From: an uncultured bacterium
GTDB lineage: Bacteria > Patescibacteriota > Dojkabacteria > J137
Direction of reading: 5' to 3'
DNA length: 64,000 bases
NCBI GenBank assembly: GCA_963700155.1
Contig: OY969472.1
Coordinates: forward strand, 317,511-381,510
Of this stretch, positions 7,624-49,684 are shown one piece after another. The notes beneath the pieces are model-generated. The model did no database searches. It was not told the origin of the DNA and was given only the letters and a program-made list of their open reading frames with translations. Every line of letters begins with the position of its first letter. Position 1 is the stretch's first letter. Position numbers and translations under genes: made by a program.

Positions 7624-9615
7624 ATGAAAATCTTTCTCAAAATCCTAGGAATTATTCTAGCTATTTTTATCTTCCATTCTATTACAACAGTTACAGTTCA
7701 TGCTGTAACTTTCACTTATCCAAATTATGATGTAAATGTTCAAATAAGCAAGGATTCAACGTATGTTGTGACTGAAAAAGCAGATTATGTTTTGAATGGC
7801 GAAGCTCATGGATTACGAAGAGACCTTACATTATATGATTCTCAAAAATCTCAGAAGTGTGCTAGTAGTTCAGATCTAACATGCGGTGGATTTGATAGGG
7901 TTCAAGTTTTAAGTGTGACTGATAATACAGGACGTGAACTAAACTCAAATGAATTTAAATTCTATGAATATACAGATGATTATGGAACTAGATATGGAAG
8001 ATTTGAATGGACAATATGGCCAGATGGTAAAGAAGTTACAGATTACAAAGTTGGATGGACAATTCAATATAAAATATTTGGTGGAATTCAAAAAATAGGA
8101 AATAATCCTTATTTCTACTGGAATATGCTTCCAGAAGATCGTAGTGGAACAGTAAATAATGCAAAACTTGAAGTTAACTTCCCAAGTGGCATAAATGTGA
8201 ACAAAGATAATTTATCTGTATATGCTGACGATAGTTACAGAATACAACCAACTTCAGGTGGATTCATTTTTACATTGAGCAGTCTTCCTGACTATAGTAA
8301 TTTTACCGTTGCATATAAATTCCAGCCAACAGATATAGTATTACCAGGCAGTATTTCATATAAAGTAGATGCTCCTTTATATGGAATTAATATATTATTA
8401 GATCAACAGTCAATTGATAGTAATTCGTCTGTTGGAATAATAAAAAGTGTTGAAGCAGGAGACCATACTTTAGAAATTAATCATGTGGGGTACAAACCAT
8501 TCAGTCAGAATATAAATGTAAAATCAGGAGAAACAAGCGATGTTGAAGTTACACTTGTACCGGAAACTTGGATGAGCATTTTGTTAGTTTTAAATAATGT
8601 ATTTATTCTTATTGGCTGCATATTGGTACCAGTAACGATGATTCTTGTATATTTGTATTACAGAAGACATGGTCGTGATAAAAACATGCCAAAAACTATC
8701 ATTCCGCTCTACACTCCACCAGAAAATACTCCTCCATATCTTTTAGGAACAATCAAAGATGAAAGTGTTGATAAAGAAGATATTGTAGGTTCAATTATTG
8801 ATTTAGCTTATCGTGGATTTATTAAAATTAAAGAACTTAAAAAAGGTAAAAATTATGAGTTGAATTTACAAGATAAAGATACTTCTGAATTAAATGAAAC
8901 TGAAAAGCAGATTTTAGATTCATTATTTAATGGTGAAGATACAAGAGAAACTGATGATATGAGTTCTTATTTCCCATCCAAATATATAAAATTAACTAAT
9001 AGAATTTATGATGAAGTTGTTGAGAAAGGATTCTTTAGTAGATCGCCTCGAACTACAATTGGAATTTATGCAGGGATTGGAGTTTTGCTTATTGTTTTGG
9101 GAGTTGGATCAGTTATTCTATTATCTGCTTTATTAACTAATTTCTTAGGGTATATATCTATATTTACTATTGGAATTGCAGCAGCGACGGGAGGTTTTTG
9201 CCTCCTTGTTATTGCCAAATTTATGCCGGCAAAAACCTCTCTTGGCAGCAAAACATATGCTGATATTTTAGGATTCAAAATGTATCTTCATACAGCTGAA
9301 CGTTACAGACTGCAAAAGCTTGGTCCTGATGAATTTGAGAGATATCTATCTTATGCAGTTGTATTCAAAATTGAAAAAGAATGGGCAAAGAAATTTGAAG
9401 GTATTTATAATAAACAGCCTGATTGGTTCGAAGGTGACTATAATGTATGGAATGCAATAATAATTTCAAATTTCTTAAGTAGTTTTAGAACTGCAAGTGT
9501 CAGCGGTATGACTCCGGTCTCGAGTGCAAGTGGTGGTGGATGGTCAGGTGGGGGCGGTTCATTTGGTGGCTTCTCCGGTGGTGGAGGTGGAGGCGGGGGA
9601 AGCGGTGGATGGTAA
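7624..9615 (+). CDS. DUF2207-like membrane protein: signal peptide, large extracellular domain, TM helices and a glycine-rich C-terminal tail
   Basis: 663 aa. An N-terminal signal/TM is followed by an extracellular region, TM segments around aa 320-345 and 480-530, and a C-terminal ...SGGGWSGGGGSFGGFSGGGGGGGGSGGW tail. The layout is typical of the DUF2207 family as I recall it. Confidence 0.5.
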   Translation: MKIFLKILGIILAIFIFHSITTVTVHAVTFTYPNYDVNVQISKDSTYVVTEKADYVLNGEAHGLRRDLTLYDSQKSQKCASSSDLTCGGFDRVQVLSVTDNTGRELNSNEFKFYEYTDDYGTRYGRFEWTIWPDGKEVTDYKVGWTIQYKIFGGIQKIGNNPYFYWNMLPEDRSGTVNNAKLEVNFPSGINVNKDNLSVYADDSYRIQPTSGGFIFTLSSLPDYSNFTVAYKFQPTDIVLPGSISYKVDAPLYGINILLDQQSIDSNSSVGIIKSVEAGDHTLEINHVGYKPFSQNINVKSGETSDVEVTLVPETWMSILLVLNNVFILIGCILVPVTMILVYLYYRRHGRDKNMPKTIIPLYTPPENTPPYLLGTIKDESVDKEDIVGSIIDLAYRGFIKIKELKKGKNYELNLQDKDTSELNETEKQILDSLFNGEDTRETDDMSSYFPSKYIKLTNRIYDEVVEKGFFSRSPRTTIGIYAGIGVLLIVLGVGSVILLSALLTNFLGYISIFTIGIAAATGGFCLLVIAKFMPAKTSLGSKTYADILGFKMYLHTAERYRLQKLGPDEFERYLSYAVVFKIEKEWAKKFEGIYNKQPDWFEGDYNVWNAIIISNFLSSFRTASVSGMTPVSSASGGGWSGGGGSFGGFSGGGGGGGGSGGW

Positions 9616-13890: not shown

Positions 13891-14337
13891 TCAAGATTTA
13901 ATAAATGCCTCAACTATTAAAGATTCCGCTTCTTTATCACTAAGACCTTTTGACTGAAGGTAATACATCATTTCCTTGTCTATGTAGCCAATTGTGGCGC
14001 CATGGCCAGCTTTAACAGCTGACTCCTTGATTTCAAGACTTGGAATTGCTCTGGCCATGGCGCCTTCACTCAGCAGTAAACAATCTATTTTCAAGTATGT
14101 ATCTGTATTTATAGCTGATTTTTCAATCCTCAAAATACCTTCAAAGTCAAATTTTGCCTTATCAAAAAGTACTGCTTTAATATTAATCCTTGATTTTATA
14201 TCCGGTTTTCTATGAATAATAACTATTTTGGATTCAGACTTATTTTCTCCTTTCCCAATATATACTGCACTAATTTCACAATTTTCAGAAATCTCAATTT
14301 CTTGAGTTTTAGTTATATCTATCTTGAATTTTTTCAT
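13891..14337 (-). CDS. Short SufB/SufD (UPF0051) C-terminal-domain protein, a possible mini-SufD or remnant
   Basis: 148 aa. C-terminal ...LLLSEGAMARAIPSLEIKESAVKAGHGATIGYIDKEMMYYLQSKGLSDKEAESLIVEAF matches the conserved SufB/SufD C-terminal beta-helix region. The 300-aa N-terminal part of a normal SufB/D is missing. Confidence 0.5.
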   Translation of the reverse strand: MKKFKIDITKTQEIEISENCEISAVYIGKGENKSESKIVIIHRKPDIKSRINIKAVLFDKAKFDFEGILRIEKSAINTDTYLKIDCLLLSEGAMARAIPSLEIKESAVKAGHGATIGYIDKEMMYYLQSKGLSDKEAESLIVEAFIKS

Positions 14338-14369: not shown

Positions 14370-17300
14370 TTACTGGATTTCTCTGAACGAATAAGATCTA
14401 TCAGCTATATCTGCCGAAAATATAGCGATAAATTTAGGATCATATTTTATTACAACACCTGGATCTGTTAAATTTGCTTGATAATTCAAATCTCTATGTA
14501 AATTTAAAGTTTTAGCTACTACTCCACCTAGGATATAAAGTCCCTGATATTTATAAGATGAACCCAATAAATTATTTGTATTACTTGAGAACGTACCATC
14601 TGTAACTAAATATGCATCAACTATTTCATAATTTGGTGGAGTTGATGAACTAACTGATATGTAAGGGGACTTAACCGACACAGAGGTAACTGAAATATTT
14701 CCCTTTATGACAAACATACATGCCGAGCTATCTGTATCATTTTTTAATTCTGGATTTATTGTGAGATTCCCTCCCACAAGAATTATTGCTTTAACATCAC
14801 AAGTCGAGGCTCCTAACGACAAATCACCACTTTGTTCTAGAATTGTTTTACTTCCTGGAGAGACGCCAATTAAAGTGGAAATCTTTCCTCCGAATCCCAT
14901 ATTCCCGGTTTTTTTTACTATAGTAGTAGCTTTATTCTTTTCTACTCTATCTTTTACCAAGTCATACCATTTAGTAAAATTTGTTGTTTTCGATGGTGCA
15001 ACAGACTCATCAATGTAGTTTATTGCATAAGTATCAGATTTTGAAATTCTTAGAGATGGGATTGCTGGTGTGCCACTCACAACCGAAAAAGTTGCTAAAT
15101 ATGGAGTTCCTGTATCGCCTCCAACAATTGATCCAGAACCAGAAAAATCGGCTACTATTTGATCGCTACTTTTTACATAATTATAAAACTGTACATTATC
15201 TAATGCTCCTGTAAATGCAACAGACCCATTTACTCCGATACAAGGATTTGTAGCCATAACAAAGTTTGCTGTATTACCTAGATTCGTAACTCCACCAGTA
15301 CTTCCAGATCCTTTTAACACCGAATCAACGTACATCGATATACTTGGGCCCGATCTAGTTATTGTAATAAAATGCCAATTATTATCATTTATCTGCTGAC
15401 TGGTTGACACTCCTTTATAATTTGTTCCGGATGCATCCTGATCCAACTCCATACTTATATATCCATTTCCATAAATCAAATTCCAAAAGCTAGCATGTGT
15501 ACATACCAATCGCTTTGAAATAATATAAGATGTTGCAGCACTATTCGTCTTTATCCAAAACTCAATACTAAAATCTCTCGTTCCAAAATTACCAATACTT
15601 GAGTTAGTACTAACACTATTACTACCATTAAAATTACCTGCAGTACCTTCTACCCCAGATACCCAAGAAGTTCCAGTTCCACTAAAAGTTCCATTATTTC
15701 CTCCACTGCTGTCACTAACAGTTGTACCAGTACCCTCATTGAATTTCCAATTTGCTATTGGAAGACCTTTTGAATAACTATACGCAACTTCACTTGCAGA
15801 TCTTGCATAATTGTATATTTCTGCTTCATCAATACTTCCATTTAATGGGTAACTTGCATCACCTCCAATATAAAAAGTTTTATTAGCTGTTGCATACCAA
15901 TTACCTACAAAATTTTGTTGAGATAATAAAACTCCATCTCGATAGAAATAAGCATATGCTCCATCATATACAACTGCATATTGGTGCCATAATCCATCAA
16001 ATTGAATAGCATTTACAGAAACCACATTTCCACCAAATACTGCAAATCTAAACGAACTTCCTATATATTCAACTGCCAAACCACCAGCTGAAGGAACTTC
16101 TAATAATCTACTTGTATGTGATACAGAGGACTTTAACCAGAAAACCACTGATAGTTTACTTGATGAATTAAAATTTAATGTTGAGCCGGATGTATATGAT
16201 AAAGTTGCACCAGCGCCGCTTCCATTTTTTGTAAATGCATTACCATAACGACCTGTTGAGAATGATCCAGATGAAATAGTAGCAGTATAACCACTATTAC
16301 TTGAATCACTAATTATTGAACCAGAACTCTCATCAAATTTCCAATATGCAATTGGAGCAGTCCCAATATCACCTGGAATTGTTCCATTTCCATAGGTAGA
16401 TTGATAAGTTCCTGTAAAAGGAACAGTAAAACTTGGGTTGTCAGGAATATTCACACTAAACCCCTGATTTGCAGAGATATTCCCTTGATATGCGTACAAC
16501 CAAGGTGTAGGTTGAGAGACATCTTTGTTAACGCTAGCATAGTTACATGCTGAATCCATTCCATCAAGCCTGAAATTAAAAGTATTACCTTGAGATGTAC
16601 TTGTATCGCTATAATTTCTTGTTGGAGCTGTTAAATAGTTACCCAAATTTACACTTCCTCTATGGGTATTTGGTGCAAAATTAAATTGGAGATCTTGCCC
16701 AATAGTATTATCTCTTAAGCCCCCTGTACTATCGGGGCGAGTGATATAGTTAACTACATCAGATAAAGTCCCGTTATCACTCGCCCCATATGTAACATTT
16801 AAAGTCTGGTTTGAATTATAAGATGGGCCAGTTATTGTTAAAGTTGGATTTGTTGTATCAATTGTCCAAGTATCAAGTTTTTTAAACATGAAATTATTTG
16901 AGCCAGTAGCATAAGAACTTACCTCAGTCCCATCAGAATTTCTCATATAAACCGTTCCATATACATTATAGGTACCACTAGGGAATGTGTTCTCGAACCT
17001 AATTTTATAAATTGATGTACTTGAATTACCTGATACAGTCATCTTTGAACTTACACCAACATCTATAAGTTTTCCAGTTCCATTCTCATTAGTCTCATCA
17101 CCACTTGAAATAATTGGAGCAAAAGTTACACCATCATTTTTTAGTGTTGCTCCTTGACCACCTGGATTTAAATCTACAGCTATAGCTTTGCTATTTGCAG
17201 ATTTCTGAAACAAAGTGCCTGCATCTATATAGGTATTATTTTCAGAATAAGTTCCTGTTGTTGGAACGAAAACTAAAAAGCTTCCAAGGAATTGATCAGA

Positions 17301-18188
17301 TTCAGTATCTTGATAAGTAACTGAATATGTTATTGGATTCTCTGTTAACCCACTTGAATTATCCCACCTTCCAGAAATACCACTTGATAAAGAACATGTA
17401 TCAGCTTGTGTAAATGAATGCGAAGTTTCAGTTGGAGTACTATTTATAGTGAAATTCCAAACTGCTGAATTGGCATTATTTGAGCCATTAGTTTTTTGAA
17501 CAAACCAACAATAAGTTGTCCCCCAATTTAATCCACTCGCTGTTGTTGAAAGTGTGCCTTGAGGTAACGTTGCATACTGTGTATAAGTTCCAGTACAACT
17601 CGCACTTAAAAATACTTTATATTGGTTACTTTGTGGACATCCTGTACCCCATCCTGTTGCATCAGTCCAACTTAAATTTACCGAATTATTTGGAATAGCT
17701 GAACCAGTTGATGGAGAGCTTAACGTTGCTGCTCCAGGGTTTGTTGATGTACAACAAGACTGAGTGTTGCACGATCTTGTACCTCCACATGCATTGGTCT
17801 GCGTTCCACCTCCACAAGCAACTGAGCACGAACCCCAGCTATTAGAATCACAGCATGCTTGAGTATTACAATACCTAGAATGTCCACATCCATCATATTG
17901 AATTCCTGTTCCACATGATGCAGAACACGAACCCCAGTTTGGAGTACAAGTTGGAGGTGGAGGACAGCTTCCGCATGTATGACTTCCATCAGGACAAGTT
18001 ATCGGGACTTGGCATGTACCTGAAAAAGATGGAGAACAATAATAAATTCTTGTACATAAAGAATCTGAACAAACAACACAACCAGCTCCATTTCCACAAC
18101 ACTGAGTTGCTGCATCTACATTCTTAGAGTACAAAACTCCCAATATAAAAAAACTTAAAACAATAAAGAAAAAAATATATTTTTTCAT
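14370..18188 (-). CDS. Giant secreted/surface protein 'B': signal peptide, Cys-rich region, two thrombospondin-type-1-like repeats, an FN3-like domain, two LamG/ConA-like lectin domains, and a shared C-terminal module
   Basis: 1272 aa.
- N-terminal hydrophobic signal.
- CTPNWGSCSASCGTGIQYDGCGHSRYCNTQACC and SWGSCSVACGGGTQTNACGGTRSCNTQSCC match the TSP1 pattern W-x-x-C-S-x-x-C-G-x-G.
- PGAATLSSP...VNLSW...YKVF is FN3-like.
- IAYWKFDESSG...FDGLWHQYAVVYDGAYAYFYRDGVLL...IDEAEIYNYARSASEV and IANWKFNEGTG...NNWHFITITRSGPSISMYVDSVLKG...LDNVQFYNY are Laminin_G_3-type domains.
- The last 270 aa are about 60-70% identical to the C-terminus of the 821-aa paralog. Confidence 0.7.
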   Translation of the reverse strand: MKKYIFFFIVLSFFILGVLYSKNVDAATQCCGNGAGCVVCSDSLCTRIYYCSPSFSGTCQVPITCPDGSHTCGSCPPPPTCTPNWGSCSASCGTGIQYDGCGHSRYCNTQACCDSNSWGSCSVACGGGTQTNACGGTRSCNTQSCCTSTNPGAATLSSPSTGSAIPNNSVNLSWTDATGWGTGCPQSNQYKVFLSASCTGTYTQYATLPQGTLSTTASGLNWGTTYCWFVQKTNGSNNANSAVWNFTINSTPTETSHSFTQADTCSLSSGISGRWDNSSGLTENPITYSVTYQDTESDQFLGSFLVFVPTTGTYSENNTYIDAGTLFQKSANSKAIAVDLNPGGQGATLKNDGVTFAPIISSGDETNENGTGKLIDVGVSSKMTVSGNSSTSIYKIRFENTFPSGTYNVYGTVYMRNSDGTEVSSYATGSNNFMFKKLDTWTIDTTNPTLTITGPSYNSNQTLNVTYGASDNGTLSDVVNYITRPDSTGGLRDNTIGQDLQFNFAPNTHRGSVNLGNYLTAPTRNYSDTSTSQGNTFNFRLDGMDSACNYASVNKDVSQPTPWLYAYQGNISANQGFSVNIPDNPSFTVPFTGTYQSTYGNGTIPGDIGTAPIAYWKFDESSGSIISDSSNSGYTATISSGSFSTGRYGNAFTKNGSGAGATLSYTSGSTLNFNSSSKLSVVFWLKSSVSHTSRLLEVPSAGGLAVEYIGSSFRFAVFGGNVVSVNAIQFDGLWHQYAVVYDGAYAYFYRDGVLLSQQNFVGNWYATANKTFYIGGDASYPLNGSIDEAEIYNYARSASEVAYSYSKGLPIANWKFNEGTGTTVSDSSGGNNGTFSGTGTSWVSGVEGTAGNFNGSNSVSTNSSIGNFGTRDFSIEFWIKTNSAATSYIISKRLVCTHASFWNLIYGNGYISMELDQDASGTNYKGVSTSQQINDNNWHFITITRSGPSISMYVDSVLKGSGSTGGVTNLGNTANFVMATNPCIGVNGSVAFTGALDNVQFYNYVKSSDQIVADFSGSGSIVGGDTGTPYLATFSVVSGTPAIPSLRISKSDTYAINYIDESVAPSKTTNFTKWYDLVKDRVEKNKATTIVKKTGNMGFGGKISTLIGVSPGSKTILEQSGDLSLGASTCDVKAIILVGGNLTINPELKNDTDSSACMFVIKGNISVTSVSVKSPYISVSSSTPPNYEIVDAYLVTDGTFSSNTNNLLGSSYKYQGLYILGGVVAKTLNLHRDLNYQANLTDPGVVIKYDPKFIAIFSADIADRSYSFREIQ

Positions 18189-18189
18189 A

Positions 18190-18651
18190 TTATATAGAAT
18201 TTAAACATTCCAATCTATCAAATGGGTATTTGATAAAATTTGATAAACCCCCATATGAATTATCCAATTTATCTGAATAACTCGGATTATTAATATAAAT
18301 TGCTAAAACCTTACAATCTCGAGGGGGCAATAAGTTACTGGTCTCACCTTCATTAATATGACTCCATTCCCCTAACATAGTTTCAAGATTAGTTTTTTCA
18401 AATGAATTTAATGGCAACTTAACCTCATCTTTTGCACTGTTAAATATAGAAAGATAACGATCATTAATATCTTCCAAGTGTAAGGTATAACTAAATTTTG
18501 AAGTATTTAGATAGTAAACCGTGAAATTATCTCCAGGAAAAGAATGTCCTGATAAGTCATCTTCTTTTTCTATATTAAAAAGAAGGTACCCACCGACAAA
18601 TATTAAAATTCCAACAATTAATAAAATAGATGCAAAAATTATTTTTCTCAC
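18190..18651 (-). CDS. Small N-terminally membrane-anchored protein, P2 of module b
   Basis: 153 aa; N-terminal TM. The extracytoplasmic part is S/N/Y-rich with two Cys near the C-terminus. Immediately upstream of giant gene B. Confidence 0.4.
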   Translation of the reverse strand: MRKIIFASILLIVGILIFVGGYLLFNIEKEDDLSGHSFPGDNFTVYYLNTSKFSYTLHLEDINDRYLSIFNSAKDEVKLPLNSFEKTNLETMLGEWSHINEGETSNLLPPRDCKVLAIYINNPSYSDKLDNSYGGLSNFIKYPFDRLECLNSI

Positions 18652-19100
18652 TTTAAATACAAATTAATATTATATGAATAAGTCCCTTGAAAATAGTAAC
18701 TAACAATACTAATATCATATGAACTTCCTGATTGTAGATAGCTACTAAGTTGCTGTTTATCTATAGTTGAATAACTATAATCAGGTTGAAAGATACCAAC
18801 TTTATTAGCAATTTCTGTAAACGGTATATCAACATTTACATCATTCTCTCTAAAATTTATAACAAAAAAGATACGGTCACTATTTACAACAGAATTTTTC
18901 AACGTTCCTAATATACTTCCTGAATTACCGACAGCATGTACATTAACATTATTAGAAACCAACCACTCACTGCTACTATACATGTCATTCCCCCAATAAT
19001 TTATTTTATTATTGTAGTCAGAGTATCTATATATACAAAAAACAACAGCAATTAGAAACGTTATTATTGAAAATATCAAAAAAAGATTTTTTTTCATCAA
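18648..19100 (-). CDS. Small N-terminally membrane-anchored protein, P1 of module b
   Basis: 150 aa; N-terminal TM and an S/N/Y-rich ectodomain. It overlaps the next gene by 4 bp, indicating translational coupling. Confidence 0.4.
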   Translation of the reverse strand: MMKKNLFLIFSIITFLIAVVFCIYRYSDYNNKINYWGNDMYSSSEWLVSNNVNVHAVGNSGSILGTLKNSVVNSDRIFFVINFRENDVNVDIPFTEIANKVGIFQPDYSYSTIDKQQLSSYLQSGSSYDISIVSYYFQGTYSYNINLYLK

Positions 19101-19154
19101 AAAATATTAATACTACTTAATCTATCATATGAGTCTATCAAGGTAAACTTAAAA

Positions 19155-21620
19155 TCAAAGGACTTCTCTAATAGAATATGATCGATCTGCTAAATCATTT
19201 CCAAACATAATCAAATACTTTGGGTTATATTTCACAACTACTCCCGGATCAGTAAGATTGGCTTGATAATTCAAATCTCTTTTCAAAGATAATGCATTCC
19301 CCGGAGCGCCATTAACAACCATTCCTCCATCTATATACAACCCTTCATATTTATTTGTAGAACCTGGAAGATTGTTTGTAAAAGTTTCAAGTTTCAAGTC
19401 AGTAATTATATATGCTTCAATCTTATCGTAATATGGCTGAGTAGTAGAATCTACAGCAATGGTAGGCGACTTGGCGGCCACAGAAGTAAGATTAACATTA
19501 CCTTTAACTACAAACATACATGCAGAAGCATCATTATTCTCTACAAAATCTGTACTTAAAGTTAAATTACCACTAATAAGGAATATTACCTTAACATCAC
19601 AAACTCCATTACTAATCGTCAAGTCGCCCCCCGATTGTTCAACTATCACTTTATCACCTACTGACACTCCAATTCCATTTGCAATACTTCCATCAATACT
19701 CATATTTCCACTCTTTGTTACTATTGGGCTTTTCTTATTTTTCTCTACTCTATCTTTTACAAGGTCATACCATTTAGAAAAATTACTTGATTTCGGTGGT
19801 TCGACAGCATCATTAGTATAATTTAGTGCATAAGTATCAGTTTTTGAAATCCGTAAGGTTGGTACTATAGTATTTCCACTAATAACAGCATAACTTGAAA
19901 GATAAGGAGTTCCAACATCATTGGCAAATGGTACTTTAAAGTTAGGATTATCTGGTATATTAACTTCAAAACCTAAATTCGCAGAAGCATTTCCAAGATA
20001 ACTAATGATCCACGGTTTTGGTTCAGATACTCCAATTGTTGTTCCCGAAATATTACATGCATTATCTTTTGCAACAAGTTTATATGAATAATTAGCAGGT
20101 ATTCCAGTTGTTTTATATTTATGTAAACCTAAATTACCGGTATTTATACCAGCGTTAGAACCTTGAGGATAATCATATGGTGTATTTCCTAAATTAATTA
20201 CCCCGACACTTGAATCTGTTAATTGTGCTCCACTTGATTTATCAGACCAAATATAAGAATAAATTGTATATAATCCAGAACCTCCTGAATCTGTTGCACC
20301 CCAATTTACGTTAAAAGTTTGGTCAGTATTATAAGTAGGACCGGTTAAAACTGGGCCAGGATTTGCCAAATCAAATCTCCAACTATCTAATTTTATAAAC
20401 ACTTGTGAATCCAATGGTGTTGCATAAGAAGATACTATAGTTCCATCACTATTTTGCATTAATACCATCCCATATACATTATAAGTTCCGCTAGGGAATG
20501 TATTCTCCATTCTTATCTTAAAATTTGCTGTTGCAGTATCTCCACTTACAGTCATTTTAGTATCTACATCTGCTCCTAAGACAGTTGCATGGCCATTTTG
20601 AGTAGTTTCATCTCCACTTGTTATTCCTGACGACCACGTAATATTATTATTCAAGGTACTAACTTTACCATTGGAGTTATTAATTAAAACTCCTATACCA
20701 CCAGCATTTATTGCTTCCTGCTCAACTGTATTAGCATTTACAGTTGGATTATTTTCTCTATATACTGGAACAAAAACTAAATAACTTCCTAAAAAAGTAT
20801 CACTTTCTGGATCTTGAAAAGAAAATGAATAACTAATTGGGTTCTCGGTTTCTCCACTTGGATTATCTGCCCTTCCTGAAATCCCATCCGATATCTTGCA
20901 GGTATTGTCCTGGGTAAAATTATGACTTAAATTTATAGGTGTTTTATTCACTTTAAAACTCCAGACTGAAGAATTTTGAGTACTTTTGCTATTATTTTTC
21001 TGAACAAACCAACAATAATTTGCCCCCCAAGATAATCCACTAACATTTTTATTTAATGTACCTTGAGGTACACTTCCATAATTTGTATAAGTACCAGTAC
21101 AATTTTGACTTATGAATACTGTATAAGTATTTGTGTTTGGGCATCCAGTGCCCCAGGAAGCTGAATCAGACCATTGTAAATTCACTGAGTTATTTGGAAC
21201 AATTGAACCGTTAGCAGGAAAAGACAATGTTGCAGCTCCTGGGGCACTTACTGTACAACAAGATTGAGTATTACAAGCCCTAGAATGGCCACAGCCATCA
21301 GATTGAGTTCCTCCACCACAAGATTTGGAACATGCGCCCCAGTTTGGAGTGCAACCTCCTCCTCCTCCACCAAGGCAGCATCCCATATTAACTTCTCCAT
21401 CACCATTTCTAAAACATCTAACACCTACATTAGGAACATTTTCTGTATGAAATCCTGAGTCACAGGGGTTGCACTCTGGAGCGCATTCTGCAGAAACCCC
21501 AATTATAGAACTAACAACTCCTGAACTTGAGTAATTACTTCCAGTATTGAAAAAGGAAATTACCCCAAGTATAAAAAGTGTTATTAAAACAACAGTTTTA
21601 AGTTTTTTAAAATAATTCAT
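19155..21620 (-). CDS. Giant secreted/surface protein 'A', paralog of B: signal peptide, Cys-rich region with a Gly6 tract, one TSP1-like repeat, an FN3-like domain, and the shared central and C-terminal modules; no LamG domains
   Basis: 821 aa. It contains CTPNWGACSKSCGGGTQSDGCGHSRACNTQSCC (TSP1-like) and PGAATLSFPANGSIVPNNSVNLQWSD (FN3-like). It is collinear with B throughout, except for a roughly 450-aa insertion in B between ...NIPDNP.F.VPF and GTPYL.... Confidence 0.7.
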   Translation of the reverse strand: MNYFKKLKTVVLITLFILGVISFFNTGSNYSSSGVVSSIIGVSAECAPECNPCDSGFHTENVPNVGVRCFRNGDGEVNMGCCLGGGGGGCTPNWGACSKSCGGGTQSDGCGHSRACNTQSCCTVSAPGAATLSFPANGSIVPNNSVNLQWSDSASWGTGCPNTNTYTVFISQNCTGTYTNYGSVPQGTLNKNVSGLSWGANYCWFVQKNNSKSTQNSSVWSFKVNKTPINLSHNFTQDNTCKISDGISGRADNPSGETENPISYSFSFQDPESDTFLGSYLVFVPVYRENNPTVNANTVEQEAINAGGIGVLINNSNGKVSTLNNNITWSSGITSGDETTQNGHATVLGADVDTKMTVSGDTATANFKIRMENTFPSGTYNVYGMVLMQNSDGTIVSSYATPLDSQVFIKLDSWRFDLANPGPVLTGPTYNTDQTFNVNWGATDSGGSGLYTIYSYIWSDKSSGAQLTDSSVGVINLGNTPYDYPQGSNAGINTGNLGLHKYKTTGIPANYSYKLVAKDNACNISGTTIGVSEPKPWIISYLGNASANLGFEVNIPDNPNFKVPFANDVGTPYLSSYAVISGNTIVPTLRISKTDTYALNYTNDAVEPPKSSNFSKWYDLVKDRVEKNKKSPIVTKSGNMSIDGSIANGIGVSVGDKVIVEQSGGDLTISNGVCDVKVIFLISGNLTLSTDFVENNDASACMFVVKGNVNLTSVAAKSPTIAVDSTTQPYYDKIEAYIITDLKLETFTNNLPGSTNKYEGLYIDGGMVVNGAPGNALSLKRDLNYQANLTDPGVVVKYNPKYLIMFGNDLADRSYSIREVL

Positions 21621-22006
21621 AAACTAAAAGTTTCAAAAGAATTCTCTAACTTATCCTTACATGAAATATATCTTACCAAGTCCTTATCATTATTAATATT
21701 TTTAATATCAATTTCAATATTAAAATACTTGCATGTATTCTTCGGGACTAAAAGCTCTCCACTTACAAAAAAATTATCAAGAAAATCATTTGCAGTTTTA
21801 TCTTTAATAGGAAAACTAAACGTCTTATTGTTTTCATTAACCAAACTTAAAACATCATTTTGTAAATGTATATTTACTTTTGAAGTATCAATATAAATAG
21901 AATCATAATCATAGTTTTGTATAGTAGTATTAGCTAATTTATATATAGTTAAACCAATAAAAATTATTGAAAGTAATAATAATATTAAAATTAAAAGTTT
22001 TCTCAA
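21617..22006 (-). CDS. Small N-terminally membrane-anchored protein, P2 of module a
   Basis: 129 aa; MRK + TM, with two Cys near the C-terminus as in the 153-aa P2b. It overlaps giant gene A by 4 bp. Confidence 0.4.
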   Translation of the reverse strand: MRKLLILILLLLSIIFIGLTIYKLANTTIQNYDYDSIYIDTSKVNIHLQNDVLSLVNENNKTFSFPIKDKTANDFLDNFFVSGELLVPKNTCKYFNIEIDIKNINNDKDLVRYISCKDKLENSFETFSL

Positions 22007-22010
22007 AAAT

Positions 22011-22517
22011 TTAATTTAATAAATAAAACCTGCTTACATAAGGATTTCCTTGTGTACTTTCTGGATAAGATATCTCAAGATCAATTCCACCTATACTCTT
22101 TAATTTATCAATAAAATCTGAATGATTTAATGATTCAGTTTTTAAAGAAACTGTATCAAAATCATATAAACTTCCTGTAAGATATGAATTAGGAATTGTT
22201 AAATCCATAGTTGATTTATTATTATCGTCACCTCCATTAAATTCTCTTAAAGTTGCTTTAGCAAAATTCCCAGTTTCAGGCAGAAATTCTAATGCACTAA
22301 CGAATCCACTATACTCTTTTCTATGAATGATACTTTTTAAAGAAGAATTGTAATTAAAATCATAAAGCCAGCTAACAGATGAAGTTTGAGAACTTTGCTT
22401 AAGTGAACCTATTAATCCCCCTGTGGAATTACCAGTAAAAAAGATAAAAATAACAAATGAAATTATCAAAATAAAAATGGCTATAACTACACCAATATTT
22501 TTCCTTAAGTTTTGCAT
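22011..22517 (-). CDS. Small N-terminally membrane-anchored protein, P1 of module a
   Basis: 168 aa; N-terminal TM and an S/N/T-rich ectodomain. It is the first gene of the cluster. Confidence 0.4.
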   Translation of the reverse strand: MQNLRKNIGVVIAIFILIISFVIFIFFTGNSTGGLIGSLKQSSQTSSVSWLYDFNYNSSLKSIIHRKEYSGFVSALEFLPETGNFAKATLREFNGGDDNNKSTMDLTIPNSYLTGSLYDFDTVSLKTESLNHSDFIDKLKSIGGIDLEISYPESTQGNPYVSRFYLLN

Positions 22518-32747: not shown

Positions 32748-35700
32748 TTACTGCTTCTTTATTGAAAGATTAACTGAAAAATCTGGATTAATAGTTTGGT
32801 TGTATACTAAGCTGTCATTTTGTTTGGAACCAACTGGTTCAAAACTTGTTAATATTAAATCAGGTTCAAAAACAATCTTTTGATCTAAATTTGTATCTGC
32901 ACCTCTAATACTCATAGAATTAAGAGTAGCATTATAATTGCCATCCGAATTACTTTTTAATTTTGGATTTACAGCCCAGTCAAATTCAACAGATTTTTCA
33001 TCAAGAATTTGTGCAACAGCACAAGTCTCATCCGAATATTCATTAATACTTACTTTATATGATTCTATTCCCTTTACTGTAACCTTATCTTTTTTTACTG
33101 ATGAAGGTAGACAAATCGAGAGTCTTTGTGCTGAACCAAATACGGGAACTTGTACCACAGTCTTATAAGTTAGACCTAAGTTAGAATCGATTCTTATTTC
33201 ATCAGACACATTAAAATTTAAATATCTATCTAAAGATACCATTGTAGGATCTTCAAGATTATATCCAAGTGAATAAAATGAATTTGCCTTTGAACTTTTT
33301 ATTCCATTTAAACTATTTGATTTAACAAATGACTCATATTCAAGATCGGAACTATTAAATAGAATGCCTTGAGTAAGGGCTGAATTATGAAATGAAGTTA
33401 TTATTTGAGGAAACAATCCTGAAATATTATTGAACATTAAGTTTATTGTTTGAGCCATTATATGCGCAGAAATTTCATGTTTAGCTGATAATGTTGAATT
33501 ACCAATCTGTGATTTACCTAACTGGCTCAAAAAGTTATCTTTTTCATAATTCAGCCCTTCTACACTCACATCATTTCCATTGTTTTTAAGTATATCCAAA
33601 AGTTCTGAAAAACTCTGATAATTTATTGATAATACTCCCGAAATCTTTTGATCAAATGTATCATTAAATATTTTAGAAATACTATTTGAAAATACAGAAT
33701 AATCTGAAATATTCTCAAGATTTGAATATGAAATATGATCTTTAGATACTGCTGTTAGAGATCTTTTATTAATCTCATCTAAAGTATTCTGATCAATGCT
33801 TTTATAATCAAACTTTACAGAATCTGGAGATTGTAATGTAGTTTTAGTTATTGCTCCATTATCTAATGTTACTAATAAAAATGCAGCAGTCTCACCACCG
33901 ATTGGTTTTATCCTTGTACTATCCTGTAATAATATTAAGTATGTTTTTTTAGAATTAAGGCCTAATATTTCAGGCAGGTATTTTACAGATTCCAATGACT
34001 GCACTCCAGTTTCGTATTGCTTTAGTTTTAAATTCATATTAACCAAACCACTTACAAGAAATCCTGGTAGAACAGACATATCTACTTTTTGAGCTTGACC
34101 AAGCCCTTTCTGATATTTTTCAATTCCGGTAGTTAAATAAGGTTGTCTATTTACTAATTCCTCAAGATAATTTTGATAATTGGTGTTCGAAGTGCTCGTT
34201 GAAAGATATCCATCTGTTCCCGACCTAACCTGAGTATTATTTTGAAAATTATTAAGATAATCATAAAAAGGCTCAAGTGAATATTGTATGTTGCTTAAAC
34301 CCTCAGCTGTTACTTGATAAGCATTAATCATATTTTTAAACTGAGAAAATTCATTATTTAAACCTAAAATTGAAGCTTCGGAATTAAAACTCTCTAGGTT
34401 TTCTTGGATATCTTTCAACGAGCTACTTAAAGTATCTGCATGCAGGTTTCCAGTACTATAATTACTTGAATCTATCGAATTAAATGTATTATTGTAAAAA
34501 GGTAGTATTGAAATTAAATCTCGTCCTATTAAAACTGAAGGTGAGAATACTCCAAAAAAGAATAAGAAAAATATTACAAATAAAAATAATAAAGTAACTA
34601 TTTGCCCCGGTGACTTATTTTTAAATAGTGTAAAAGTATTCCCAAAGTCTGTAGAAAAATTCCATATTTTATTTGAAATTTTTTCTTTTAAAGTCTTATT
34701 GTGAGATATTTTTTTTGATTGAACATTATTATTTGCATTAGTAATACTTTGCATTTTAAGTTCTTCCTGTTTTTTTCTCTCCGCAATTAATCTTGAAATA
34801 GGTCCACCATATTGATCTTTTTTAGATTCTTCTTTATCTGCCAAAGACATAAAACTTTTTAGTTTATCAATAACATTATCTTGAGAAGGGTTGACTTTAT
34901 TAGTTTGAGTTTCCAAAAGATAGATTTTTGCAGCCGCAACTGATTGAGTTATTGCTTTATCAATCGGAATTTTTGGAGTCCAACCTATTGCTGAAAGATT
35001 AGGTGCTGGTTTGTAAAGCCTAATTTCAGGAAGATTATCATCTTCATCAACAAATTGTATCTCCTTTGCATCTGCTTCAAGTTCTTGAACCTTATATGCA
35101 ATCGATAAATGTGTAAAAGGATTAGGATAAGCTATTGAAAAAATCTCTCCTTTTGTATTTGCTGAAAATTGAGCTTTAATTATTCCATAAGCAGCATCCA
35201 TTAAATGTACAAGCCACTCTGATTCTAGTCCATCTTTTGATAATTTTAGAGGCTGTTTTTCTACGACTCTAATCATCAGATCAGTGAAGAAAGTCTTTGT
35301 TGAGAAATCTAAACCTTCACCTATAATTTCACCTAATCGTACAATTCTTGCATCAAGGTTTGTTTTTTCTGAATATTCCATAACAAGACTTTCTGCATAT
35401 CTTTGTACTTCCATTTCAGTATAAACAGTATGTCTTTCTTTTGAATCAACACCGTATTTAGCACTTAAATCATCGTAAGATAGACTTAATTGATGTGCTC
35501 TAATAGCTGTAGTTAATAGAAATTTAGACCCAAATTTATTTGCTAAATTTAAAGTATTATCAAGATAGTTAGAAAACTTTAGGAAATTCTGAGTAGATAT
35601 TTTTGACATATAATCTAATGACTCATGATCAAAATAGAAAATATAGTCTAGTCTTCTTAATTCTTCATCAAGTTCAGCTAAGGTTGTGTAATCTATAAAA

Positions 35701-35894
35701 CTTACTAATGATCCTTTTGGAAAAATATTTAACTTTGCAATATTCTCATCAGAATAATTATCAACAATAATCACATATCCTCCTTGTTCAATTAAAGAAT
35801 CAACAATTTCTAATCCAAGTCTAGAAAGTCCTCCAACTATCAAAGAAGTTGGATATTTTATTGTATTCTTTAATCTGTATTGTTCCTGAATCAT
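32748..35894 (-). CDS. Fusion protein: N-terminal cytoplasmic NAD(P)-binding epimerase/dehydratase-like Rossmann domain, one TM helix, and a large extracytoplasmic DUF4012-like domain
   Basis: 1048 aa. SLIVGGLSRLGLEIVDSLIEQGGYVIIVDN is a Rossmann fold; a TM helix lies around aa 440-465. The ectodomain motif YLILLQDSTRIKPIGGETAAFLLVTLDNGAI is shared with the 740-aa protein at 47462..49684. I recall this motif as the DUF4012 hallmark but cannot verify it here. Confidence 0.5.
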   Translation of the reverse strand: MIQEQYRLKNTIKYPTSLIVGGLSRLGLEIVDSLIEQGGYVIIVDNYSDENIAKLNIFPKGSLVSFIDYTTLAELDEELRRLDYIFYFDHESLDYMSKISTQNFLKFSNYLDNTLNLANKFGSKFLLTTAIRAHQLSLSYDDLSAKYGVDSKERHTVYTEMEVQRYAESLVMEYSEKTNLDARIVRLGEIIGEGLDFSTKTFFTDLMIRVVEKQPLKLSKDGLESEWLVHLMDAAYGIIKAQFSANTKGEIFSIAYPNPFTHLSIAYKVQELEADAKEIQFVDEDDNLPEIRLYKPAPNLSAIGWTPKIPIDKAITQSVAAAKIYLLETQTNKVNPSQDNVIDKLKSFMSLADKEESKKDQYGGPISRLIAERKKQEELKMQSITNANNNVQSKKISHNKTLKEKISNKIWNFSTDFGNTFTLFKNKSPGQIVTLLFLFVIFFLFFFGVFSPSVLIGRDLISILPFYNNTFNSIDSSNYSTGNLHADTLSSSLKDIQENLESFNSEASILGLNNEFSQFKNMINAYQVTAEGLSNIQYSLEPFYDYLNNFQNNTQVRSGTDGYLSTSTSNTNYQNYLEELVNRQPYLTTGIEKYQKGLGQAQKVDMSVLPGFLVSGLVNMNLKLKQYETGVQSLESVKYLPEILGLNSKKTYLILLQDSTRIKPIGGETAAFLLVTLDNGAITKTTLQSPDSVKFDYKSIDQNTLDEINKRSLTAVSKDHISYSNLENISDYSVFSNSISKIFNDTFDQKISGVLSINYQSFSELLDILKNNGNDVSVEGLNYEKDNFLSQLGKSQIGNSTLSAKHEISAHIMAQTINLMFNNISGLFPQIITSFHNSALTQGILFNSSDLEYESFVKSNSLNGIKSSKANSFYSLGYNLEDPTMVSLDRYLNFNVSDEIRIDSNLGLTYKTVVQVPVFGSAQRLSICLPSSVKKDKVTVKGIESYKVSINEYSDETCAVAQILDEKSVEFDWAVNPKLKSNSDGNYNATLNSMSIRGADTNLDQKIVFEPDLILTSFEPVGSKQNDSLVYNQTINPDFSVNLSIKKQ

Positions 35895-47461: not shown

Positions 47462-49684
47462 TTATTTACTGCTTAACTTATCCCAAGGGATAGAATTAAC
47501 AAGGCCAGTTAACCAATCAAGACTTTTATCATAATTATCTACTGAGATAATACCATTTTTATACGTTAGAACTTTATCTCTATCTAGTACAAAATCAATT
47601 GAATACTGTTGTCCCCCTTGATTAATATTTATTGTATATTTCTCTCCCCAAGATTTTCCGGGGTGTTTTTGAATTAGAAGTGTATATTTTTTATCAGATT
47701 TATAATTTATAGAATCTGGCAAATCATAGCTTACATTCATTTCCTGTCTTAAGATCGGGTCTGATTCTTGAAATCTTCGATGATCAAACTGTACTATATT
47801 GTCACTAACTTCTTTATTCATAATTGAATCATAATATTCCTGTGGATAATAACCAACATATCCAGAGGCTGTGTATCCATCTGAATTGAAATTCGTAGTT
47901 CCAACTGGAGTCATAAATCTTACCCAGGCTCTATAGCTAAATGAAGTTGATGGTGAATATTGTTTTTCCAAACCAGGTTCATATACTTTTGTTTGAAGCC
48001 ATTTTACGTTAACAGCATCATTTATATTGCCATTGTCTTGGATTGTTACATTTTGTGTAACTTCGTCTCTAATCCATTTATTTAATTTTAATGAACAATT
48101 TTGTGCTTCATTCATATGGAAATAATCACCACCGCTATAATCAGTTGCAAATCTTCCAGACATTCCATAAGTATCTAAATACTTTTGAGTATCAGCGCTG
48201 AAAGGTGCTTCAATTGCTAAATCTCTTCTTTGGAACGATTGAATTATTGTACTTAGGATGTCAGGAAATTTTTCAACAGGTAGGTTGAAAAATTTCTTTT
48301 TAGCAGCATTAGCAATATCTTTAATAATCTCTTTTCTCTGATCATTTGGTAGATTTTGGTCTGTTTCTCCTTTAATAAAATCATATAAATTTTCTGCTGT
48401 AACAGTCCCATAACCTTCTACTTCTAGTGGTTGGATTAAATTTATTAAATTTGTTGCAAAAGTCTCATCAAGAAATAAAATATAATCATATTCGGGATAC
48501 TTATCTGGGTAGACAGGTTGAACAATATTATAGTAATCAACAAGCATACTTCCTATTTGGTGTAAATCTGGATAAATTCCTGCATCTTGAACTCTTAATT
48601 CAGTTCCTCCACATCCTAGATTCATTAAAACATTCTGCCCATAAATATTACTATATGGCATTGGTCGACCAACTCCCCATAAATCATATTGAAAGTTCCA
48701 CATATCTGTTAAAAAGATATCTTCACCTAAAGTACCTTTATCAATATTCATAAATCCATAAGCTGTTAATAAACCTCCTGAGGATCTCATCTCGGTTTCA
48801 TTTTGAAGTATTAATAAATATTTCGCAGGTTTGTTTGCTCCAACTAAGTCAGGAACGTATTTTAAGAAATTTGTGGTTTGAGCTGAAATTGTCGGGAATT
48901 CATCTATAAAATCATAACTAGATTGGATTGAATCTTTTAAATTATATCCTGCTATATTTGGAACATAATTTAAATCAATTTTCTTAACATCTTTTAGAAT
49001 ATCTTCTATTTGAGGTTCAATATTATTATAAAGTTTTAAATAACTAGGAAGCTGTTGCAGAATTAATGTCACTGCTCCTTCTTCTTCACCTTTTTTAGGA
49101 ATTACTTCATTTTGATCAACTTTAAATCCAGTTAATTTAAGTACATCTTTTAAATCCGGAAGAGTTGTTTGTATAACATTACTAGTTTTATGAAGTATTC
49201 CTCTGGCAACCTGGAAGTTTTCATAATATCCTTTTGTAGCATCCATAGAAGCTAAGAAATCATACCTACTTAATTCGCCATCTATATTATTTAAATCTGT
49301 CTCAATATTATTAAAATATGAGTCAATATTTGATAAATCTTTTCCATTAAAGTCATTAAGAATCGAAGCACCATTAGCCTTAATATCATCAACATAACCA
49401 AGGATTCTTTGAGCAGGAACAACTACAAAAAAATAACCTAAGCCACCAACTATCAATAGTATTGCAATTATTAACAATACAAAAATTCTTAATATTTTCT
49501 TCTTTTTCTTACTTTTATCTGAAACTATTGGGTTATCTACATTAACAACAGTTGTGGGTTTTTCGACTTGGTTTTCATTTTTTACTTCCGAATCTTGGAA
49601 TAAAACCCCGTCCGATTGACTGGATTCTTCTAATTTTTCTTTTTTAAAATTTAAATTTCTACTTTTCACCAAAATTAAATACAA
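47462..49684 (-). CDS. Membrane-anchored protein with a large extracytoplasmic DUF4012-like domain
   Basis: 740 aa: Lys-rich cytoplasmic N-terminus, one TM helix, and a 650-aa ectodomain. The motif YLLILQNETEMRSSGGLLTAYGFMNIDKGTL is shared with the 1048-aa protein. Confidence 0.45.
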   Translation of the reverse strand: MYLILVKSRNLNFKKEKLEESSQSDGVLFQDSEVKNENQVEKPTTVVNVDNPIVSDKSKKKKKILRIFVLLIIAILLIVGGLGYFFVVVPAQRILGYVDDIKANGASILNDFNGKDLSNIDSYFNNIETDLNNIDGELSRYDFLASMDATKGYYENFQVARGILHKTSNVIQTTLPDLKDVLKLTGFKVDQNEVIPKKGEEEGAVTLILQQLPSYLKLYNNIEPQIEDILKDVKKIDLNYVPNIAGYNLKDSIQSSYDFIDEFPTISAQTTNFLKYVPDLVGANKPAKYLLILQNETEMRSSGGLLTAYGFMNIDKGTLGEDIFLTDMWNFQYDLWGVGRPMPYSNIYGQNVLMNLGCGGTELRVQDAGIYPDLHQIGSMLVDYYNIVQPVYPDKYPEYDYILFLDETFATNLINLIQPLEVEGYGTVTAENLYDFIKGETDQNLPNDQRKEIIKDIANAAKKKFFNLPVEKFPDILSTIIQSFQRRDLAIEAPFSADTQKYLDTYGMSGRFATDYSGGDYFHMNEAQNCSLKLNKWIRDEVTQNVTIQDNGNINDAVNVKWLQTKVYEPGLEKQYSPSTSFSYRAWVRFMTPVGTTNFNSDGYTASGYVGYYPQEYYDSIMNKEVSDNIVQFDHRRFQESDPILRQEMNVSYDLPDSINYKSDKKYTLLIQKHPGKSWGEKYTININQGGQQYSIDFVLDRDKVLTYKNGIISVDNYDKSLDWLTGLVNSIPWDKLSSK

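Follow-up and report, generated by a model that had tools for sequence, protein, structure and literature searches.

Thrombospondin type-1 repeats (TSRs) are usually regarded as animal and apicomplexan adhesion modules (PMC3417536). Here, we describe three short, cysteine-rich units in two large, modular secreted proteins, A and B, which are encoded in a stretch of 64,000 nucleotides from an uncultured bacterium of the Dojkabacteria (Patescibacteriota; GenBank assembly GCA_963700155.1, contig OY969472.1, positions 317,511 to 381,510 of the forward strand). This whole stretch is hereafter called the window, and coordinates refer to it unless another locus is named. The homology of the window units to TSRs is well supported by sequence comparison, and we read them as genuine but drastically shortened TSRs (mini-TSRs) on probable host-binding adhesins of Patescibacteria. 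For this reading, including the display arrangement proposed below for the two proteins, we estimate a probability of roughly 0.7.

The window contains three copies of the six-Cys module, each 32-33 residues long, with two in tandem in B and one in A, all translated from the minus strand:

17853..17948, minus strand: B mini-TSR 1, amino acids (aa) 81-112, CTPNWGSCSASCGTGIQYDGCGHSRYCNTQAC
17754..17852, minus strand: B mini-TSR 2, aa 113-145, CDSNSWGSCSVACGGGTQTNACGGTRSCNTQSC
21258..21353, minus strand: A mini-TSR, aa 90-121, CTPNWGACSKSCGGGTQSDGCGHSRACNTQSC

The units follow the pattern C-x3-4-W-x2-C-S-x2-C-G-x-G-x-Q-x3-C-G-x2-R-x-C-N-T-Q-x-C, with 18 of 32 columns invariant among the three copies and net charges, as read from the sequences, of about zero. 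Each copy has six Cys, namely an N-terminal Cys, those of the CS and CG motifs, one middle Cys and a final C-x4-C. The TSR core motif W-x2-C-S-x-[ST]-C-G-x-G appears as WGSCSASCGTG in the first B repeat, as WGACSKSCGGG in the A repeat and as WGSCSVACGGG, with Ala at the S/T position, in the second B repeat. Both the translations and a six-frame scan of the window with the unit pattern, which returned the three known copies and no more (50 shuffles gave none), bear out the initial annotation, which had placed two such repeats in B and one in A. The consensus given there fits the first B repeat and the A repeat exactly, but in the second B repeat the Trp is preceded by one additional residue, and the third Cys by Ala in place of Ser. 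Likewise, the ranges of 17751..17948 and 21255..21353 do cover the units, but each extends one Cys further, into the first residue of the unit or domain that comes next. At the DNA level there are many synonymous differences between the three copies, which are therefore best seen as old paralogues under peptide-level selection and not as products of recent duplication.

Evidence for homology comes from profile comparisons, from repeats of intermediate length and from the Cys pattern. Ten repeats taken from A, B and homologous proteins were combined into a profile; when this was run against 177,635 PDB sequences, all 34 matches were TSR proteins. The best was thrombospondin-1 (5e-12), and the others included CSP, CCN3, ADAMTS13, ADAMTS-5, BAI1 (listed as vasculostatin-120), F-spondin, MIC2, isthmin and TRAP, the last also as its Plasmodium vivax orthologue (sporozoite surface protein 2). 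A profile made from the three window copies alone gave 22 matches, again exclusively to TSR proteins (best E 1e-3), and no non-TSR Cys-rich family was found among the profile matches in these 177,635 sequences. Alignment of 13 short with 28 canonical repeats in hhalign, where every parent protein of the canonical set has a precomputed Pfam TSR-family match, returned a probability of 98.6% (E=5e-16) over 30 of 33 columns, with the C-terminal CNTQxC half aligned too and two clean deletions of 13 and 4 residues separating the forms. The span from the last Trp to the last Cys is 28 residues in short, 32 in medium (WxxW) and 40-50 in canonical units. The repeats of the relative P0005 represent the 40-aa medium form and score above the Pfam cut-offs for PF00090 and PF19030, while P0007 carries a tandem short-short-canonical array, in which the canonical unit matches PF00090 over its full length with 37.1 bits, and the L021 protein combines a short and a canonical unit. 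An N-terminal Cys together with one middle Cys was present in all short (24/24) and all medium (11/11) units, and in 17 of the 22 canonical units that possess an N-terminal Cys; two middle Cys were found in 15 of the 24 canonical units without it. These patterns are the Cys arrangements of group-2 and group-1 TSRs, reportedly as defined by Tan et al. 2002, an N-terminal plus one middle Cys being group 2, and two middle Cys without the N-terminal one group 1. In group 2, the N-terminal Cys pairs with the middle Cys, and two further disulfides form clamps at the opposite end.

AlphaFold modelled B aa 77-148 with confidence (mean predicted local distance difference test score, pLDDT, 83.4), each repeat appearing as an irregular Trp-bearing segment followed by a beta-hairpin. 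The modelled hairpins, GIQY/SRYC in repeat 1 and GTQTN/TRSC in repeat 2, lie where strands B and C of a TSR would be expected. There are, however, a number of results that weigh against our reading. On the isolated two B repeats, PF00090 reached E=1.4 and 9.6 bits (cut-off 21.6), and PF19030, PF19028 and PF19035 reached 17.3 (cut-off 23.8), 13.3 (41) and 10.1 bits (27), respectively. On the A repeat PF19030 gave 17.5 bits at the same cut-off of 23.8, and a custom hidden Markov model (HMM) made from canonical TSRs only gave A 16.3 bits over 15 residues. The PF19030 match, too, covers the 15-residue W..CS..CG.G core alone, no TSR model in Pfam matched full-length A or B, and the two B repeats by themselves gave no match in a word-index homology search. 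Foldseek found no TSR in the PDB for the two-repeat model; its best E of 1.7 is noise, for domains of only 32 aa whose mutual orientation is uncertain (predicted template modelling score, pTM, 0.43). The canonical set behind the hhalign probability was gathered with a profile that contained short repeats, which biases it towards TSRs of the CNTQxC type. The stacked Trp/Arg layers, WxxW(xxW) and RxR(xR), are absent, as each unit has a single Trp and no RxR, and without this ladder there can be no classical glycosaminoglycan-binding face, which makes the classical ligand mode of TSRs unlikely. As for the proposed display, surface exposure, disulfide formation and binding by A and B are predicted, a Foldseek search with the conserved C-terminal domain described below returned no significant neighbour, and no pilin or pilus gene was detected in the 64-kb window when its open reading frames (ORFs) were examined for the prepilin motif and for pilus Pfam families. 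Taken together, the idea of TSR-like repeats in bacterial proteins stands on profile homology, intermediates and Cys pattern, while the Pfam thresholds and the fold search did not confirm it.

Compared with canonical TSRs of about 45-60 residues, the 32-33 residues of the window units reflect losses that can be localised. The short unit keeps the last Trp, the CS-x2-CG-x-G turn, the start of strand B with its conserved Gln and the end of strand C (R/Q-x-CNTQ-x-C). It also keeps the six Cys in the group-2 layout (one at the N-terminus, one in the middle and a pair at either end of the clamp between the A-B turn and the C-terminus), and its sole conserved Arg is found where the alignment places strand C. 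Its losses comprise the upstream Trp layer or layers, the RxR ladder together with the distal half of strand B, the B-C hairpin tip and the beginning of strand C. As every one of these parts belongs to the same end of the three-stranded domain, a coherent half-length truncation would be the best reading of the short form: with all three strands trimmed at that end, a stub of half the length would remain, held together by three disulfides. The closest comparison is with the group-2 TSRs of Plasmodium TRAP/CSP and of F-spondin (PF00090, PF19028, PF19030), which share with the window units the W-x2-CS-x2-CG-x-G core, the six-Cys layout, profile homology, the modelled hairpin after an irregular Trp strand, and a tandem, extracellular occurrence (predicted for A and B) on adhesive proteins. 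In contrast to these, the window units have 32-33 instead of about 45-55 aa, one Trp instead of WxxW(xxW), no RxR and no B-C hairpin tip, fall under every Pfam cut-off and belong to a Patescibacteria host. Eukaryotic TSRs are modified at WxxW and CxxS/TC sites.

The two proteins that carry the repeats are paralogues with a shared scaffold. In B, as delimited by its ORF, its translation and alignment with A and orthologues, the order is signal peptide, Cys-rich segment, two mini-TSRs, FN3-like domain, middle region, two LamG domains and C-terminal domain, whereas A has one mini-TSR and lacks the LamG insertion:

14370..18188, minus strand: gene B, 1272-aa modular secreted protein
18111..18188, minus strand: B signal peptide, aa 1-26, predicted Sec type from reading the sequence, MKKYIFFFIVLSFFILGVLYSKNVDA-AT cleavage
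17949..18110, minus strand: B N-terminal Cys-rich segment, aa 27-80, with 12 Cys in aa 28-76, ending in PPPP
17424..17753, minus strand: B FN3-like domain, aa 146-~255, with the motifs WGTGCP and YCWFVQK
15156..16271, minus strand: B pair of LamG/concanavalin-A-like lectin domains, ~aa 640-1011, an insertion not in A (Pfam Laminin_G_3, 4e-35)
14373..15143, minus strand: B conserved C-terminal domain, aa 1016-1272, the family-defining element
19155..21620, minus strand: gene A, 821-aa paralogue of B with 50% identity over the shared parts
20925..21257, minus strand: A FN3-like domain, aa 122-~232, from profile search and alignment with B
19158..19925, minus strand: A conserved C-terminal domain, aa 566-821, from HMM, alignment and model

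The initial annotation had placed the repeats immediately after the signal peptide and had suggested from this that they form an exposed binding tip. In both A and B, however, a Cys-rich segment of ~45-55 residues stands between the two (in A at aa ~45-89, ~21354..21490, followed by a Gly run before the repeat), and this segment, for which no family match was obtained, is the actual N-terminal end of the mature protein. The repeats as an exposed binding tip are nevertheless plausible. The FN3-like assignment is based on profile-search matches that carry PF00041, on a weak PDB match to an FN3 domain and on fn3 in 5 of 59 family members. The middle region after this domain had no family match in either protein, no recognisable lectin module was detected in A with Pfam, and neither protein carries a name or annotation. 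A prepilin N-terminus was not found in A or B, either as a G-F-T-L-I-E-type motif or as a PF07963 match, and an identity as modular type IV pilins was rejected, there being no class III signal peptide/N_methyl motif.

The element that defines the wider family is the C-terminal domain of ~250 aa, which is always located at the C-terminus. In a search of 1.84 billion representatives, a 7-sequence profile of this domain retrieved 1,852 clusters at E<=1e-3, with 481 at <=1e-10 and 122 at <=1e-30. The domain had no match in Pfam, NCBIfam or the PDB sequences, and NCBIfam and PDB sequence searches with A, B and the family profile gave nothing useful, a sub-threshold TafC match falling on the LamG region. 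The AlphaFold model of A aa 561-821 (261 residues) is beta-rich, with a pTM of 0.72 and pLDDT above 90 at approximately residues 60-150. Foldseek neighbours of beta-solenoid type (ice-binding, pectate lyase, RTX and tapirin proteins) had E~1 and were set aside as evidence. Among the relatives, modules such as fn3, LamG, F5/8 type C, C-type lectin, VWA, sialidase-N and Hint are found, and Kelch and LamG are inserted at differing points of the scaffold: the Kelch propeller of P0003 (aa ~725-1010) lies inside the C-terminal domain, the LamG pair of B between the middle region and the C-terminal domain, and L005 and L006 have very large inserts. A short TSR near aa 85-125 was present in 11 of the 150 best family members, and the TSR copy number in relatives ranges from 1 to 3. 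The C-terminal domain of more distant relatives is homologous to that of A and B (hhalign 88%, E=2.8e-6, and HMM cross-matches). The C-terminal domain family would merit its own family description. In P0007 (L001 5108..7675), a Hint/intein-like autoprocessing domain occupies aa 59-190, N-terminal to the TSRs. Among 59 scanned family members, 3 have Hint domains, an indication that the distal end may undergo autoproteolytic maturation or attachment.

Both genes are the last members of three-gene cassettes, in which two small, N-terminally anchored proteins precede the big secreted protein, and this cassette is found twice in tandem on the minus strand of the window at 14370..22517. The small genes are the following:

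22011..22517, minus strand: cassette A first gene, 168 aa, N-terminal membrane anchor
21617..22006, minus strand: cassette A second gene, 129 aa, N-terminal membrane anchor, its end overlapping the start of A
18648..19100, minus strand: cassette B first gene, 150 aa, N-terminal membrane anchor, homologous to the L019 equivalents (7e-12)
18190..18651, minus strand: cassette B second gene, 153 aa, N-terminal membrane anchor, abutting the start of B

No Pfam or NCBIfam family and no prepilin motif was found in the small cassette proteins. BLAST and phmmer connect only those that are orthologous, and the second small proteins have in common a weak pattern with two Cys. The synteny of primase, L19, HIT, RNase HII and cassette is kept at the P0003 locus and at the P0004 locus (L019), which has a second cassette as well (L019 9107..12697 and 15575..21063), and the Saccharibacteria genome L006 (3170..10589) has a shorter version consisting of HIT, RNase HII, one small protein and the big protein. 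In these other Patescibacteria the cassette invariably comes directly downstream of the RNase HII/HIT/L19/primase genes. Next to the cassettes in the window, a 148-aa ORF at 13891..14337 matches the SufBD core only over its C-terminal portion (profile positions 106-232), being either a truncated remnant or a minimal SufB/D-like gene. Other envelope-related genes of the window (55427..57949; 32748..35894; 47462..49684; 7624..9615) encode a TrwB/TraG-like type IV secretion coupling protein, two DUF4012 proteins, one of them an epimerase fusion, and a DUF2207 membrane protein with a PEGA/CarboxypepD_reg-like domain.

Similar repeats were also sought elsewhere. Scans of GTDB genomes and metagenomes recovered the short form in proteins of other Patescibacteria, including Dojkabacteria, Saccharibacteria, Roizmanbacteria and unclassified members of the phylum, as well as on low-GC metagenome contigs; a first scan of the GTDB genomes with the full-length family alignment had confirmed no relative. 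Canonical TSRs are sporadic in other bacterial metagenome-assembled genomes (MAGs), and a member of the P0005 cluster, MBI2620619.1 from candidate division WWE3, appears in NCBI nr as 'thrombospondin type-1 domain-containing protein'. In the literature we found no paper linking type-1 repeats and Patescibacteria, the single match for thrombospondin and the candidate phyla radiation (CPR) concerning type-3 repeats. Two side observations point beyond bacteria. In P0008 (L036 2085..3611), whose gene adjoins archaeal-type OapB and OapC and which is probably archaeal itself, a PKD domain comes after a short unit, and a Pacearchaeota MAG (L013 9554..11518) carries a medium unit with a longer TSR-like one beside it, which suggests a module common to CPR bacteria and DPANN archaea.

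Based on this architecture, a display arrangement can be proposed. The C-terminal domain would dock the protein to the cell surface via the two co-transcribed small membrane-anchored proteins, and in some relatives it would dock to a type IV pilus instead. The Cys-rich cap, the mini-TSRs and the FN3-like domain would project as a rigid, protease-resistant distal arm touching the surface of the host cell, in which the units may be rigid spacers or may bind via the conserved Gln, Arg and Asn-Thr-Gln positions. Published work (PMC10633639; PMC11623550) shows the epibiotic growth of Patescibacteria to require pili as well as several adhesins of the lectin/FN3 type, which makes an adhesin role for A and B reasonable, and the two are probably adhesins for holding host cells.

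A possible, if on balance unlikely, alternative is that the TSR-derived repeats are rigid spacers alone, with binding left to LamG, to other modules or to the Cys-rich cap. The missing Trp/Arg ligand ladder and the near-zero net charge of the units would fit such a role, as would their location between the distal Cys-rich segment and the FN3-like domain, the copy number of 1-3 among relatives, which is typical of stalk modules, and the dedicated lectin domains of B. On the other hand, the Gln, Asn-Thr-Gln and Arg surface positions are conserved beyond what a pure spacer needs, and A, which has a repeat, is without any recognisable lectin module.

It is rather improbable that A and B are type IV pilus tip adhesins of PilY1- or PilX2-like type, with the C-terminal domain on a minor-pilin complex and the TSR arm at the tip. 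This view draws on more distant relatives with the same TSR plus FN3-like arm and a homologous C-terminal domain, whose genes are contained in or adjoin type IV pilus clusters. P0005 (L002) has small proteins on one side and a PilX-like protein and minor pilins on the other; the L015 protein is encoded by a gene that overlaps with a prepilin gene, with PilM in the vicinity; and P0012 (L034/L035) adjoins PilM, with pilins, prepilin peptidase and PilC within 10 kb. At L018 (983..2647), a prepilin N-terminus (N_methyl) is fused directly to four canonical TSP1 domains (PF19028, 1e-28), making it a TSR-bearing modular pilin; the contig that holds this locus has a GC content of 27%, and its binning as Phocaeicola vulgatus is therefore probably an error. 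A VWA domain in one family member and the example of PilX2 from Saccharibacteria TM7x, a large pilus-locus adhesin without a PilD signal (PMC11623550), point in the same direction. However, the window has neither prepilin motif nor pilus gene, the closest relatives (P0003, P0004, L005 and L006) are not linked to pili but stand beside RNase HII and two small non-pilin proteins, the prepilin motif is absent from all of the 150 best family members, and the C-terminal model is not a beta-propeller. As a separate observation on P0012 (L034 10001..10759, L035 4742..7407), this protein of 252 aa with a short TSR and variant TSR-like units seems to be the N-terminal portion of a family gene that was split or frameshifted, and a Y1 transposase gene is found ~2 kb downstream.

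It is very unlikely that the repeats are a convergent disulfide-rich domain unrelated to TSRs, whose CSxxCGxG likeness is a coincidence of Cys/Gly-rich composition. This could be argued from the canonical TSR single-profile tests, which were all sub-threshold and covered 15 residues, and from Foldseek, which gave no TSR match. Set against this, every PDB profile match was a TSR and no other Cys-rich family scored, the CNTQxC half aligns as well, short units and TSRs have the Cys pattern in common, and the lengths form a continuous series in which short units stand in tandem with canonical TSRs in single proteins. Eukaryotic contamination or an assembly chimera, which might be suspected from TSRs being best known from animals and apicomplexans (PMC3417536), has next to no chance of being correct, as the genes lie on a 1.14-Mb contig amid bacterial housekeeping genes (window GC 31%), the same genes in the same synteny recur in independent assemblies, and the remainder of each protein is Patescibacteria-specific.

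With the units read as shortened TSRs on probable adhesins, three known systems are instructive. The WWE3 protein MBI2620619.1, also from the CPR, resembles A and B in its Cys-rich N-terminus, TSRs, FN3-like domain and homologous C-terminal domain, but has 40-aa WxxW repeats above the Pfam thresholds and is located within a type IV pilus cluster. PilY1 (Pseudomonas, Myxococcus) and PilX1/PilX2 (Saccharibacteria TM7x) are likewise large and secreted without a prepilin signal, and combine a variable adhesive part with a conserved docking part, and some members of the A/B family are found among minor pilins (PMC11623550); unlike these proteins, however, A and B have a C-terminal model that is not a beta-propeller and a window without pilus genes, and no sequence or fold similarity was detected between them. 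The apicomplexan TRAP/MIC2 adhesins offer an analogy only, that of an obligate cell-associated parasite or episymbiont showing TSRs together with other adhesive domains on a surface protein (PMC3417536), but they are eukaryotic, have canonical TSRs with a heparin-binding face, and are coupled by a transmembrane segment and cytoplasmic tail to a gliding motor.

Longer bacterial versions of the repeat have already been annotated as TSP1 in NCBI, so nothing is overturned here, and the function put forward for A and B is a proposal. What the dataset adds is that a trimmed yet recognisable TSR recurs in probable surface proteins of Patescibacteria, where the short form escapes the standard Pfam models and is therefore left unannotated in proteins like A and B. 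Only tentatively, we would go further and suggest that the 32-residue unit, with one Trp, three disulfides and no Arg ladder, is the smallest natural TSR fold, which would have arisen by loss of one end of all three strands and would be used mainly by ultrasmall episymbionts (Patescibacteria and one probably archaeal genome) as the distal arm of a large undescribed host-recognition system of about 1,850 clusters with a new docking domain, two small membrane proteins, exchangeable lectin heads and, in some lineages, pili. The short unit offers a natural minimal TSR scaffold for structural work, and the mini-TSR profile, combined with that of the C-terminal domain, provides a sequence handle for finding such adhesins. 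The large, unnamed modular family to which A and B belong represents good candidates for the host-attachment factors of uncultivated episymbionts.

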